A stretch of DNA of 32,000 bases from Nocardia brasiliensis NBRC 14402 (GCF_000308475.2 NZ_BAFT02000104.1:67873-99872); one strand, 5' to 3'. Shown: positions 5,683 to 18,445, counted from the first letter of the stretch. Notes: generated by a model from the sequence alone, not told the origin. A program made the numbers and translations.

Positions 5683-6198
5683 ATGACCCAGAGTGATCCC
5701 TACCAGCGCCTCATCGAGTTCCTCGACGCAGGTTCCGCGCAGTATCGATTGATCGATCACGAACCGGAGGGCCGCACCGATGTGGTCAGTCCGATGCGCG
5801 GCAACGACTTGCACGATGCGGCGAAGTGCATGGTGGTGATGGTGAAGATCGGCAAGAAGACCAAGCGGTACGTCTTGGCGGTGGTGCCGGGTGACGCGAA
5901 GGTCGACCTCACCGCGGTGCGCGCGCTCTTCGAGGGCACCTATGTTTCCTTTGCCACCCCCGAAATCGCCGAGAATCTCGCCGGTTCGGTGGCGGGCACG
6001 ATTCTGCCCTTCTCGTTTCATCCCGATCTCGAACTCATCGTCGACCCGGGTGTTCTCGACATCCCCGAGCTGTATTTCAACGCGGCCCGGCTCGATCGGT
6101 CGATGGCGTTGCGTACCGGCGACTACGTGCGCTTGGCCCATCCGCGCACCGAGAAGATCGCGCAATACGAGGCGGCCATGGGCGAGGCGATGACGTAA
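5683..6198 (+). CDS. free-standing YbaK/ProX-type aminoacyl-tRNA deacylase (candidate fluorothreonyl-tRNA deacylase, FthB-like)
   Basis: AGAAAGG at 5671-5677 precedes ATG 5683. The 171-aa protein has the YbaK/tRNA_edit-like pattern (AAKCMVVMVKIGKK..YVLAVVPGDAKVDL...GTILPFSF). The FthB-like reading rests on location in the fluorinase locus. Confidence 0.75.
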   Translation: MTQSDPYQRLIEFLDAGSAQYRLIDHEPEGRTDVVSPMRGNDLHDAAKCMVVMVKIGKKTKRYVLAVVPGDAKVDLTAVRALFEGTYVSFATPEIAENLAGSVAGTILPFSFHPDLELIVDPGVLDIPELYFNAARLDRSMALRTGDYVRLAHPRTEKIAQYEAAMGEAMT

Positions 6199-6238
6199 TC
6201 CGATTGCCGACAGAACGTACATTCTCGGAGGTCTGCAG

Positions 6239-6466
6239 ATGACTACCAAAGAAGCCGACAGCGGCCACCTGGCGGGCTCGACGAATTTCGTCGACCGTGA
6301 CGCCGAGCGTGTCTGCGCCGAATTGCATGCGATGCGCGCGGTCGGGGACGACACCGGCGCGCTACCGGCAGGCCACGGCTTGGCCGATGTCCGCCGCGTC
6401 GCGCTGGTCGGTACGAACCGTCTCCGAGATGTGTTGTTCCACAAGGCCAGACACGGCCGGGTGTAG
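6239..6466 (+). CDS. small hypothetical protein (75 aa)
   Basis: GGAGG at 6227-6231 lies 7 nt before ATG 6239. Third codon positions are mostly G/C when read by eye. The stop codon sits in the loop of a perfect hairpin. No family recognised. Confidence 0.45.
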   Translation: MTTKEADSGHLAGSTNFVDRDAERVCAELHAMRAVGDDTGALPAGHGLADVRRVALVGTNRLRDVLFHKARHGRV

Positions 6467-6478
6467 TCCGGCCGTGTC
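6450..6478. terminator. hairpin between convergent genes (11-bp perfect stem GACACGGCCGG / CCGGCCGTGTC, 7-nt loop)
   Basis: Arms at 6450-6460 and 6468-6478 are exact reverse complements. The hairpin lies between the small ORF stop (6464-6466) and the USP stop (6503). No U-tract follows, as is common in high-GC actinomycetes. Confidence 0.5.
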
Positions 6479-6502
6479 CGGCGTTGCGGTCCGAGAGCGC
6501 AC

Positions 6503-15953: not shown

Positions 15954-16041
15954 CGCCCGCCCGGGCGGCTACCGGGCATCGAGATTTCCGCCCGTGGAGG
16001 TGGCGGAATTCACCGCACAGTAATACAGAAGGAGCGGGTCA

Positions 16042-16944
16042 GTGACAACAGCAAATGGTCGCCGCCCAATTATCGCTTTCATGAGCGACCTCGGCATCAC
16101 CGACGACTCGGTGGCGCAATGTAAGGGGTTGATGCTCAGCGTGTGTCCGGATGTCACGATCGTGGACATCTGCCACACCATGCAGCCGTGGGACGTGGAG
16201 GAGGGCGCACGGTACATCGTCGATCTGCCGCGGTTGTTCCCCGAGGGCACGGTGTTCGCGACCACGACATACCCGGCGACCGGCACCACCGCGCGCTCGG
16301 TCGCGTTGCGGATCGCGCACGCTTCCAAGGGCGGCGCCCGCGGACAGTGGGCCGGCTCGGGCGCGGGCTTCGAACGGAAGGAAGGTTCCTATATCTACAT
16401 CGCCCCGAACAATGGCCTGCTCACCACGGTCATCAAGGAGCACGGGTACCTGGAGGCCTACGAGGTGTCCTCGCCCGAAGTCATTCCGGAGCAGCCGGAA
16501 CCGACCTTCTACAGCCGTGAGATGGTCGCGCTGCCGTCGGCGCATCTCGCCGCCGGCTTCCCGCTGGAGAAGGTCGGGCGACGCCTCGCCGACGACGAGA
16601 TCGTCCGATTCGAACGCAAAGATCCCGAACTCGTCGCCGACACCGACCTCGTCGGGTACGTGACCAACATCGATCATCCGTTCGGCAACGTGTGGACCAA
16701 CATTCATCGCACCGATCTGGAGAAGCTCGGTGTCGGGTACGGCACCAAGCTGCGGATCACCCTCGACGGCGTGCTGCCGTTCGAGTTGCCGCTGAGCCCG
16801 ACCTTCGCCGACGCGGGGGAAGTCGGGGCGGCGGTCGCGTATCTGTCCAGCCGCGGTTATCTGGCTCTGGCGCGCAACGCGGCGAGTCTGGCCTATCCCT
16901 ACAACCTCAAGGCCGGCATCAGCGTGCAGGTCAAGGTGGGCTGA
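16042..16944 (+). CDS. flA: fluorinase (5'-fluoro-5'-deoxyadenosine synthase)
   Basis: GAAGGAG lies 7 nt before GTG 16042. Collinear with my memory of S. cattleya Fl[55 protein letters not shown], the fluorinase-specific insert [63 protein letters not shown] and [10 protein letters not shown]. Confidence 0.93.
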
Positions 16945-17014
16945 TCCAGCACTGTCGGCGGCCGGTCGGGCCAGTTCGGGCCGGCCGTCGGCATCGGCCT
17001 GCAAGGAGGGTCAA

Positions 17015-18445
17015 ATGTCGCTGTCCCGTGGCGATTTCGCCAGTCTGTTCGTCGCGCTGATCGTCATCCTGGTCGCCGCTCATCTCGGGGCGCAGATCTG
17101 TGCGAAACTGCGCCAGCCGCCGGTGATCGGCGAGATCCTCGGTGGACTGTTCTTGGGGCCCACGGTGTTCGGGCAGGTGGCGCCGGGCGTGGCGAGCCAA
17201 TTGTTCCCCGCCGGCGGTGTCGTCCACGCCGGAATCCAGATGCTCAACGAGTTCGGACTGCTGCTGCTGATGTTCCTGGCCGGGCGGGAGGTCATGACCT
17301 ATCGCAATCCCGGCAAGCAGCGCACCGTGGCGGCGTTGGCCGCGGCCGGGCTGGTGATTCCGATGGTGCTCGGGGTCGGGGTGGCCCTCGCGCTCGACCA
17401 CGCCGACTACTCCGGCCCGCACGGGACCGATGCCACCTTCGCCCTCATCTTCGGAATCGCCTTCGCGGTCACCAGCATTCCGGTGATTTCGCGGATAATG
17501 CTCGACCTCGGGTTGCTCAACACCAGCTTCGCCCGGACCGTCCTCGCGGTCGCGCTGCTCGAGGACGTCGTGCTGTATGTGGCGCTCGCCGTGACGTTCA
17601 GCCTGGTCCAGAGCGACCAGAAGACATTCGGGCTCGGTTCACTGCTGCAACTGCACGGTACGGGCGCGATGGCGTACCAGGTGATCGTCAGCCTGGTTTT
17701 CATCACGGCGCTGCTGCTGGCCGGCAAGTGGTTGTTCAACCGGCTGGCCACGAGCAAGGTGAATCTGATGGAGAAGGCGAGTCCGATCGCGTTCCGGCTG
17801 GTATTCGCACTCGCGCTGGTCCTTTCGTGTGTGTTCCTCGGGATCAACGCCATCTTCGGCGCGCTCTTGGCCGGGATCGCCTCCTCCGATATCAGTGCGC
17901 CGCAAGGCAATCGGCATAGCAAGCCCGTGGCGGGCGCGGCCGCATGGGATACGATCAAGGACTTCTCGCTGGCGTTCTTCATCCCGATCTACTTCGCCGG
18001 GGTGGGCATGCAACTCGATCTGGCCCGCAACTTCGACCTCGTGTTCTTCGCCGCCTTCTTGCTGACCGCGACCGCGGTCAAGGGGCTCAGCATCTGGGCC
18101 GCCGCGCGCGCGGTGGGCGAATCGACCCGGTACGCGAAGAATTTCGCCGTCGCGCTGAACGCGCGTGGTGGCCCGGGAATCGTGCTGGCCACCGTCACGT
18201 TGTCCGCGGGCCTGATCAACGAGGAATTCTTCACCAGCATCGTGCTGCTCTCCATCGTGACGTCCTCGTTGGCCGGCATGTGGTTGGACTATGCGTTCCC
18301 GAGAACGCTACGTCCGTCGCTGCTCGCCACAGCCTCGAATCATGATGCGAGGACGCCGGACAACGGCGCCGCGGGAACTCGCGGCGGTGGCGCTGCGGCC
18401 GATCATGTGGTGGGGGCCGACGAAGCGCCCGGGCCCAAGTCGTAG
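17015..18445 (+). CDS. cation/H+ antiporter (CPA-type, FlH-like)
   Basis: AAGGAGGG precedes ATG 17015. The 476-aa polytopic membrane protein has a Na_H_Exchanger-like pattern (IGEILGGLFLGPTVFG, LLLLMFLAGRE). It is 70 nt downstream of flA on the same strand. Confidence 0.85.
   Translation: MSLSRGDFASLFVALIVILVAAHLGAQICAKLRQPPVIGEILGGLFLGPTVFGQVAPGVASQLFPAGGVVHAGIQMLNEFGLLLLMFLAGREVMTYRNPGKQRTVAALAAAGLVIPMVLGVGVALALDHADYSGPHGTDATFALIFGIAFAVTSIPVISRIMLDLGLLNTSFARTVLAVALLEDVVLYVALAVTFSLVQSDQKTFGLGSLLQLHGTGAMAYQVIVSLVFITALLLAGKWLFNRLATSKVNLMEKASPIAFRLVFALALVLSCVFLGINAIFGALLAGIASSDISAPQGNRHSKPVAGAAAWDTIKDFSLAFFIPIYFAGVGMQLDLARNFDLVFFAAFLLTATAVKGLSIWAAARAVGESTRYAKNFAVALNARGGPGIVLATVTLSAGLINEEFFTSIVLLSIVTSSLAGMWLDYAFPRTLRPSLLATASNHDARTPDNGAAGTRGGGAAADHVVGADEAPGPKS

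Follow-up and report, generated by a model that had tools for sequence, protein, structure and literature searches.

We conclude, at a probability of about 0.9, that the block at positions 5683-18445 of a 32,000-nucleotide stretch of Nocardia brasiliensis NBRC 14402 DNA (GCF_000308475.2 NZ_BAFT02000104.1:67873-99872; hereafter the window) is the N. brasiliensis nob fluorometabolite cluster, carried by a strain other than ATCC 700358 and extended on its left side by an orthologue of the resistance gene fthB. The part from 6947 to 18445 is the published ten-gene nob cluster, which was described in strain ATCC 700358 (GenBank KF963271) by Wang, Deng & Qu (F1000Research 2014, PMC3999930) and also by Deng et al. 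(ChemBioChem 2014). The published order is nobG-C-F-M-D-E-B-I-A-H, with products of 223, 340, 191, 659, 334, 191, 292, 502, 300 and 476 aa (PMC3999930). The gene order in the window is the same, and the lengths of the open reading frames (ORFs) are equal for nobC, nobM, nobB, nobI, nobA and nobH. The fluorinase (FlA) of the window is identical to NobA (W8JNL4) at 297 of 300 positions (99%), and its transaldolase to the published NobM at 633 of 659. Exact matches to both proteins were found in N. brasiliensis (SUB47361.1 for FlA and WP_226887328.1 for the transaldolase). The nearest genome locus is that of N. brasiliensis IFM 10847, with an FlA identity of 98%, and at least eight distinct variants from N. 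brasiliensis fall in the fluorinase sequence cluster. The boundaries drawn in 2014 for ATCC 700358 omit the fthB orthologue and a gene for a Usp family protein, both of which lie inside the block considered here.

A preliminary description, made from the sequence alone, had read this block as an extended fluorometabolite locus that joins biosynthesis, cofactor recycling, resistance and regulation. That reading is right, but the locus was already known, and the result amounts to rediscovering it correctly and refining its annotation in minor points. Every element of the interpretation is in print, including the view that the cluster is more self-contained than that of Streptomyces cattleya. Pardo et al. 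(ACS Catal 2022, PMC9173684) compared fl clusters across actinomycetes, N. brasiliensis NCTC 11294 among them, and reported flB, flG, flH and flI in all the actinomycete clusters compared, flIso and flFT in most of them, and fthB and fthC usually near flFT.

Genes were called from a listing of ORFs and from third-position G+C, in DNA with the G+C content of a high-GC actinomycete (61-71% per kb), and the proteins were scanned with Pfam and NCBIfam. The twelve named protein-coding genes of the preliminary description were all present, in the order and on the strands that it gave (Table 1), and each function that it assigned agrees with curated models and published work. The fluorinase gene lies in the block together with flB, flI, flH and a FlG-type regulator gene. 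The order flB(-)/flI-flA-flH(+) is common to the window and to loci L001-L003, L005, L007, L010, L012 and L024, and a nobH-type gene adjoins flA in most fluorinase loci surveyed. These genes are found together near flA in many genomes, and the block is no chance assembly. Identities to the S. cattleya counterparts are 57% for NobB and FlB, 74% for NobI and FlI, and 59% for NobF and FlF (PMC3999930).

Table 1. Features of the block, with positions counted from the first nucleotide of the window.
Feature	Position	Strand	Basis or remark
fthB orthologue, free-standing YbaK/INS-type aminoacyl-tRNA editing protein, predicted fluorothreonyl-tRNA deacylase	5683-6198	+	Pfam tRNA_edit, E = 1.6e-18
Usp gene	6503-6946	-	Pfam Usp, E = 4.1e-19
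nobG, FlG-type response regulator with GerE/LuxR helix-turn-helix (HTH)	6947-7654	-	Pfam, NCBIfam
nobC, fthC orthologue, EamA-family exporter, predicted 4-fluorothreonine efflux	8088-9110	+	Pfam EamA
nobF, FlF-type regulator, XRE HTH + cupin	9169-9744	+	Pfam; 191 aa from ATG at 9169
nobM, SHMT + Aldolase_II fusion, predicted 4-fluorothreonine transaldolase	9751-11730	-	TIGR04506
nobD, IF-2B/MtnA-family isomerase	11769-12797	+	Pfam IF-2B, E = 9.6e-67; TIGR00512, 359 bits (cutoff 279)
nobE, adenine phosphoribosyltransferase, 194 aa from ATG	12770-13354	-	NF002636 apt, 180.9 bits (cutoff 125)
nobB, FlB-type 5'-fluoro-5'-deoxyadenosine phosphorylase (MTAP family)	13390-14268	-	Pfam PNP_UDP_1, E = 3.1e-44; TIGR01694, 319.2 bits (cutoff 274.85)
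16-bp near-palindrome TGTGCCGATCGGCGCA, divergent nobB/nobI spacer	14359-14374		Candidate operator, weak evidence
nobI, S-adenosylhomocysteine hydrolase	14445-15953	+	TIGR00936 ahcY, 626.3 bits (cutoff 497.6)
nobI-nobA spacer, 88 bp, with inverted repeat TTCCGCCCGTGGAGGTGGCGGAA at 15986-16008	15954-16041	+	Comparison with IFM 10847
nobA (flA), fluorinase, 300 aa from GTG start	16042-16944	+	TIGR04507
nobH, FlH-type CPA2 cation/proton antiporter	17015-18445	+	Pfam Na_H_Exchanger, E = 6e-41

NobA scored 611.6 bits on the TIGR04507 fluorinase equivalog model (cutoff 400) and aligned with S. cattleya FlA (PDB 1RQP) at residues 5-298, where the only gap is one residue long and lies near residue 200 (E = 4.8e-162). 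Chlorinases and S-adenosylmethionine (SAM) hydroxide adenosyltransferases lack a loop of about 23 residues that is specific to fluorinases; in NobA this loop (about residues 92-115) is present and ungapped relative to 1RQP. Chlorinases gave only about 1e-48 to 1e-49, and the chlorinase SalL and other DUF62 proteins matched as two stretches offset by about 27 residues. All the SAM- and fluoride-binding residues are identical in the window protein (Asp16, Trp50, Tyr77, Thr80, Phe156, Ser158, Asn215, Ser269 and Arg270; list from Fig. S2 of PMC3999930, a paper that also reports the loop as conserved in NobA). NobA of ATCC 700358 makes 5'-fluoro-5'-deoxyadenosine (5'-FDA) out of SAM and fluoride in vitro, with measured kinetics, and also yields 5'-chloro-5'-deoxyadenosine (5'-ClDA) in a coupled assay (PMC3999930). 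Judging from its sequence, the FlA of the window is thus a true fluorinase, as had been proposed: it passes the equivalog model, keeps the loop and the binding residues and is 99% identical to the assayed protein.

The resistance function assigned to the block agrees with the presence of orthologues of fthB and fthC. The YbaK-type protein is 75% identical (120/160) to the product of an ORF that lies between the EamA and fluorothreonine transaldolase (FTase) genes on the S. cattleya megaplasmid pSCAT, whose genes were located by tblastn. NobC is 69% identical to the EamA protein of pSCAT (69/79% to SCAT_p0565 in Table 1 of PMC3999930). The YbaK-type protein is no standard YbaK: on the canonical model it scored 41.1 bits, far under the cutoff of 153.25. 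Its start is likely the ATG at 5683, where the preliminary description had placed it; this codon has a GAAAGG ribosome-binding site ahead of it and is the point from which S. cattleya FthB aligns. Among the 24 genome loci surveyed and the longer contigs L043, L045 and L047, the YbaK-like, EamA and transaldolase genes were all present or all absent wherever the contig was long enough to tell, and this all-or-none pattern was counted in 8 genome loci plus pSCAT, L043, L045 and L047. Citing McMurry & Chang 2017, PMC7162832 and PMC7408626 describe FthB as a deacylase that acts in trans on fluorothreonyl-tRNA and so prevents misincorporation of 4-fluorothreonine (4-FT), and FthC as the 4-FT exporter; the two are called 'highly conserved' in 4-FT loci. 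Accordingly named, the YbaK-type gene is a predicted fluorothreonyl-tRNA(Thr) deacylase gene and NobC a predicted 4-FT efflux protein. Since fthB and fthC are present and flK is absent, the gene content suggests 4-FT rather than fluoroacetate as the intended product. In the metagenomic 4-FT-type cluster L043, an extra threonyl-tRNA synthetase gene (5284-7293, minus strand; tRNA_SAD + tRNA-synt_2b + HGTP_anticodon) adjoins fthB and fthC, and may be a 4-FT-discriminating resistance copy.

NobM scored 1209.2 bits on the TIGR04506 fluorothreonine transaldolase model (cutoff 650) and combines a Pfam SHMT domain (residues 59-430) with an Aldolase_II domain (the A domain, 514-652). Its pyridoxal phosphate (PLP) lysine lies in an NTHK(280)T motif conserved in 7/7 FTases examined, and the A-domain motifs GNIS, PSAE, VHNH and RHG are conserved in nine A domains. 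A-domain residues were mapped to the numbering of the characterised FTaseMA by motif, not by direct alignment; in that enzyme an Asn, two or three His and a Glu of the A domain matter for activity (PMC7162832). Conversion of fluoroacetaldehyde and L-Thr to 4-FT has been shown for the S. cattleya and MA37 enzymes (PMC7162832), and NobM is predicted to be a 4-FT transaldolase as well.

Taken in order, the genes nobA, nobB, nobD and nobM match the steps that had been proposed for the block. NobA would turn fluoride plus SAM into 5'-FDA, a step with an in vitro basis in the 99%-identical protein. By orthology to FlB, NobB would split 5'-FDA by phosphorolysis into adenine and 5-fluoro-5-deoxyribose-1-phosphate (5-FDRP), with NobE probably salvaging the freed adenine, and NobD would isomerise 5-FDRP to 5-fluoro-5-deoxyribulose-1-phosphate (5-FDRulP). 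An aldolase with no separate gene in the window would then release fluoroacetaldehyde from 5-FDRulP. Onto this aldehyde NobM, as an orthologue of the S. cattleya and MA37 FTases, would transfer the glycyl unit of threonine to give 4-FT. Self-resistance would come from NobC (FthC) exporting 4-FT and FthB hydrolysing mischarged fluorothreonyl-tRNA. The role proposed for the SAH hydrolase fits published work, in which S-adenosylhomocysteine (SAH) is a competitive inhibitor of the fluorinase and is removed by FlI, whose gene is in all actinomycete clusters compared (PMC9173684); NobI would clear SAH in the same way.

Several results weigh against this reading of the block. The 32-kb window was found to lack genes for a stand-alone class II aldolase, an aldehyde dehydrogenase and FlK, and with no separate gene for a 5-FDRulP aldolase, the dehydrogenase or FlK the block does not hold a full set for the pathway to fluoroacetate or 4-FT. 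The S. cattleya fl cluster is incomplete in the same sense, so these absences do not exclude nob from the fl clusters. In the ATCC 700358 genome, no flK homologue and no fuculose-type aldolase were found, and a candidate fluoroacetaldehyde dehydrogenase gene, nobJ, lies only at a remote site (PMC3999930). When ATCC 700358 was cultured with 2 mM NaF, 19F nuclear magnetic resonance (19F-NMR) gave no new signal, hence the term 'latent pathway' (PMC3999930); because of this 2014 experiment, the 19F-NMR test suggested in the preliminary description has already been done once, with a negative outcome. A scan of the whole window with Rfam (E <= 1) returned no fluoride or SAH riboswitch and one chance snoRNA-type match. 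No regulatory signal was identified in the block by Rfam or by the promoter, terminator, k-mer and spacer comparisons.

The pathway aldolase that acts on 5-FDRulP has never been identified (PMC3999930), and one explanation would place it in the block itself. The class II aldolase-like C-terminal domain of NobM would cleave 5-FDRulP to dihydroxyacetone phosphate and fluoroacetaldehyde and pass the aldehyde to the PLP domain, which would make the block self-sufficient for 4-FT. We consider this unlikely, though several observations speak for it. The isomerase-containing loci that carry an FTase gene (Nocardia, Amycolatopsis L002/L007, the Actinoplanes group L014/L045, Streptomyces L020/L047 and metagenome L043) lack a stand-alone class II aldolase gene within 10 kb, whereas the FTase-negative isomerase loci of Actinoallomurus (L005, L012) carry one right beside the isomerase gene. 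The Actinoallomurus aldolases match Pfam Aldolase_II at about 1e-49, with a ribulose-1-phosphate aldolase model as best NCBIfam match. FTaseMA binds Zn 1:1, and its A domain was modelled on DrdA, a 5-deoxyribulose-1-phosphate aldolase (Wu et al. 2020, PMC7162832). The A domains also share with genuine class II aldolases the Glu of PSAE, the His residues of VHNH and RHG (three in all), and the motifs GN(I/V)S and SG. However, they lack an internal loop of about 16 residues and a C-terminal tail of these aldolases, which we take to carry Tyr113 and Tyr209 of FucA, and the 'complement' side of the distribution is a single independent lineage in one genus. A surrogate fuculose aldolase was reportedly added in the 2008 in vitro reconstitution, which also counts against an aldolase activity of the A domain, and the data fit a housekeeping aldolase encoded at another genomic site just as well. 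The role that Wu et al. give the A domain, dehydration of fluoroacetaldehyde hydrate, also speaks against the explanation; their main text never names 5-FDRulP as a substrate (PMC7162832). If the explanation were true, the NobM domain would be the long-missing 5-FDRulP aldolase, 5683-18445 would encode the whole route from fluoride to 4-FT, and the stand-alone Actinoallomurus aldolases would be the unfused equivalent. The latter genes (L005 14503-15294 and L012 14518-15252, both minus strand) are divergent from the isomerase gene in loci without transaldolase, fthB or fthC, and are good candidates for an in-cluster 5-FDRulP aldolase. A scan of metagenomes for further loci returned mostly contigs shorter than 8 kb and no added isomerase-containing lineage.

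A second explanation holds that the cluster is a decaying relic without flK or a dedicated aldolase, which makes no product and is being lost. The negative 19F-NMR result and the failure to find flK and a fuculose-type aldolase, in the ATCC 700358 genome (PMC3999930) as in the window, would fit such a state, but we consider it very improbable. For an alignment between the window and the IFM 10847 locus, which differ at about 5% of nucleotides, substitutions were tallied at each codon position. The ORFs are intact across the block, and in every real gene the substitutions are strongly biased to the third position (positions 1/2/3: nobG 2/0/31, nobA 4/2/23, nobM 13/10/77, nobI 6/9/52, Usp 10/6/27, nobF 3/2/28), which points to purifying selection on the block genes. 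In addition, the existence of at least eight distinct N. brasiliensis fluorinase variants implies that the gene is kept across the species, and NobA is catalytically active (PMC3999930). The nob cluster is best described as under purifying selection, but silent under the single laboratory condition tested.

The remaining explanation, that MTAP, MtnA, Apt and SAH hydrolase here serve the ordinary salvage of SAM and methionine, next to a DUF62 SAM hydrolase or chlorinase and with no link to fluorine, can draw on the generic MTAP and MtnA models that NobB and NobD pass and on the 5'-ClDA formed by NobA, but is effectively refuted by the formation of 5'-FDA by NobA in vitro (PMC3999930), quite apart from the equivalog score, the loop missing from chlorinases and hydrolases, and the FTase, FthB and FthC genes, which have no salvage role and travel with flA across genera.

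The same codon-position counts led to corrections of the gene models. A 'small ORF' had been listed between the YbaK-type and Usp genes (6297-6584, plus strand, 95 aa); its substitutions (7/10/7, with 2 gap columns) and its G+C by codon position (0.52/0.76/0.76) are those of non-coding DNA, and by this measure it is not a gene and drops out of the block's gene list. An ORF of 104 aa in the 433-bp nobG-nobC spacer (7657-7971, minus strand) was rejected on similar counts (7/12/7, with gaps). The first 44 codons of the 659-aa NobM (11599-11730, minus strand) show 3/7/5 substitutions and an identity of only 88.7%, and the true start is probably Met45 at 11598, giving a protein of 615 aa, as in most RefSeq records. 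With this start, the divergent nobM/nobD promoters would have about 170 bp. The N-terminal extensions of nobE and nobF in their longest ORFs are probably not coding either. Many RefSeq FlA records begin at Met14 (287 aa; the difference covers 16042-16080, plus strand); the 300-aa form is favoured both by NobA as characterised and by alignment with S. cattleya FlA. For nobG, the probable start is the ATG at 7621, which gives 224 aa, with 223 aa published.

NobF (XRE-cupin) and NobG are likely the regulators of the cluster. In an alignment to VraR, the receiver domain of NobG has Ser69 at the position of the phospho-acceptor Asp. The FlG-type regulators of L014, L018, L020, L021, L043, L045 and L047 lack this Asp as well, with Gly at the position in Streptomyces- and Actinoplanes-type 4-FT clusters; Amycolatopsis and fdr-type clusters keep Asp. 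Because Ser replaces the acceptor Asp, NobG is probably phosphorylation-independent. No histidine kinase gene was found in the block or nearby in the window. The ATG of the Usp gene directly abuts the nobG stop codon (TGAATG), and as Usp begins right after this codon the two genes are probably co-transcribed. A Usp gene within 10 kb of flA was found in only four lineages, Nocardia and the loci L019 (5051-6223), L042 (17209-17685) and L043 (7550-7996), in the last of which it again adjoins a FlG-type regulator gene. Its position near flA and the FlG-type regulator may be more than coincidence, with the background rate only guessed; Usp is not a conserved member of the cluster.

Matches to sigma-70 promoters were at chance level (2, with 2.3 +/- 1.6 expected) and terminator-like matches slightly over it (10 vs 6.5 +/- 2.7), and neither set was used. 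The intergenic regions of the block share 15 9-mers, about the chance level by estimate, and the CGAATTTCG palindromes at 6278-6294 and 14288-14300 were set aside since shared k-mers are near chance. When the flB-flI spacers were aligned across genera, only short conserved blocks resembling ordinary promoter elements were seen, and no structured RNA. The near-palindrome TGTGCCGATCGGCGCA of the nobB/nobI spacer occurs in the window and in L001 only, and 21/100 shuffles gave a match at <=2 mismatches; it is a weak operator candidate, being Nocardia-specific, statistically weak and on its own not significant. Within it lies the octamer TCGGCRCA, which in six loci (L003, L006, L011, L015, L017 and L020, several of them related Streptosporangiales) is found 108-148 nt upstream of flA on the plus strand, against about 0.1 expected (overall rate 0.164 per kb). 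This octamer is a candidate operator or -35-region element. The nobI-nobA spacer differs from that of IFM 10847 by 2 substitutions (97.7% identity), which is above the identity of any coding region of the block.

In S. cattleya (Streptantibioticus), FlA is 78% identical to NobA over its whole length (79-81% according to PMC3999930), and the FTase, FthB and FthC are 62%, 75% (74-75% by tblastn) and 69% identical to the window proteins, with the same chemistry; orthologous FlB, FlI, FlH, FlF and FlG are also shared. The EamA, YbaK-like and FTase genes are adjacent on pSCAT. No flA, flB, flI or flH homologue was detected by tblastn in the 18-kb pSCAT stretch around the FTase gene. The S. cattleya pathway is thus split between the pSCAT locus and the separately described fl cluster, whereas the Nocardia genes stand in one block, and the earlier judgement that the latter is more self-contained agrees with this layout. 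A further difference is that, according to the literature, S. cattleya possesses FlK and produces both fluoroacetate and 4-FT, whereas in N. brasiliensis flK is missing and a product was not detected (PMC3999930).

Streptomyces sp. MA37, Actinoplanes sp. N902-109, S. xinghaiensis and Amycolatopsis spp. have the same core flB(-)/flI-flA-flH(+) as nob, and in 4-FT-type actinomycete clusters flIso, flFT, fthB and fthC are co-located, as they are in nob. Unlike in other fl clusters, fthB is parted from fthC in Nocardia by Usp and nobG. Several other clusters add genes for a SAM synthetase, a PfkB kinase, a DUF190 protein or FlK, and in another subgroup fdr-type genes replace flIso and flFT; none of these is found in Nocardia. 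The SalL pathway of Salinispora tropica uses an enzyme of the same SAM_HAT/DUF62 superfamily and a downstream PNP, but SalL, which has no fluorinase loop, for that reason matches NobA only in two pieces (about 1e-48), and the pathway has no transaldolase, FthB or FthC. Other surroundings of fluorinase genes were observed as well. In L044 (JGI 3300085371 Ga0679427_0000009), a fluorinase 77% identical to NobA occurs without flB, flI or flH, next to genes for condensation-domain proteins, a carrier protein, a phosphopantetheinyl transferase, an AMP-binding enzyme, a ketosynthase, E1 dehydrogenase subunits and a glycosyltransferase, which hints at a different fluorinated product. The fdr-type clusters L042, L046 and L048 encode a YmdB phosphoesterase, a cyclase, an ILVD/EDD dehydratase, a short-chain dehydrogenase/reductase (SDR), an HpcH/HpaI-family aldolase and a PfkB kinase. 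We speculate that the dehydratase and the aldolase, the latter acting on a 2-keto-3-deoxy acid, could in principle convert 5-FHPA to pyruvate and fluoroacetaldehyde.

On the right of the block, 18403-31668 encodes a LuxD-like acyltransferase (minus strand), a LuxE-like acyl-protein synthetase (minus strand), a 436-aa protein without a family match, a LuxC-like acyl-CoA reductase, an octopine-dehydrogenase-like enzyme, a PALP-family PLP enzyme, a luciferase-like monooxygenase, an FAD enzyme with a Trp-halogenase-like region, an SDR and a GCS2-type ligase (minus strand), and has the look of another biosynthetic cluster, as yet uncharacterised. IFM 10847 keeps the 436-aa gene and the Lux-like genes, which no other fluorinase locus surveyed contains. 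The LuxD/LuxE/LuxC-like genes were considered as enzymes of fluoroacetaldehyde or fluoroacetate and rejected, being absent from every fluorinase locus outside Nocardia and convergent to nobH. The left flank (2-5493) encodes two large proteins without a Pfam match (ORFs in 2-1096 and 787-3291), a peptidoglycan hydrolase (Peptidase_M15 + glucosaminidase, 3307-5013) and an OsmC-like protein (5023-5493), and a 189-bp spacer of 54% G+C lies upstream of fthB. In most of the cluster (5001-12000 and 14001-18000) the G+C content is 0.61-0.65, with 0.68-0.71 at 9-10 kb and 12-14 kb; the flanking DNA, at 0.68-0.70 in much of its length, is above most of the cluster. Among 185,579 species representatives, N. 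brasiliensis is the only Nocardia with a fluorinase match. The lower G+C and this lone occurrence are consistent with horizontal acquisition.

Biological formation of C-F bonds is very rare, and fluorinase clusters are wanted for the engineering of organofluorine biosynthesis. The nob cluster and its fluorinase were characterised in 2014, the resistance genes were explained in 2017 and the layout was compared across actinomycetes in 2022. What the present analysis adds to this record is a set of small annotation corrections and one testable idea on the aldolase step of the pathway.

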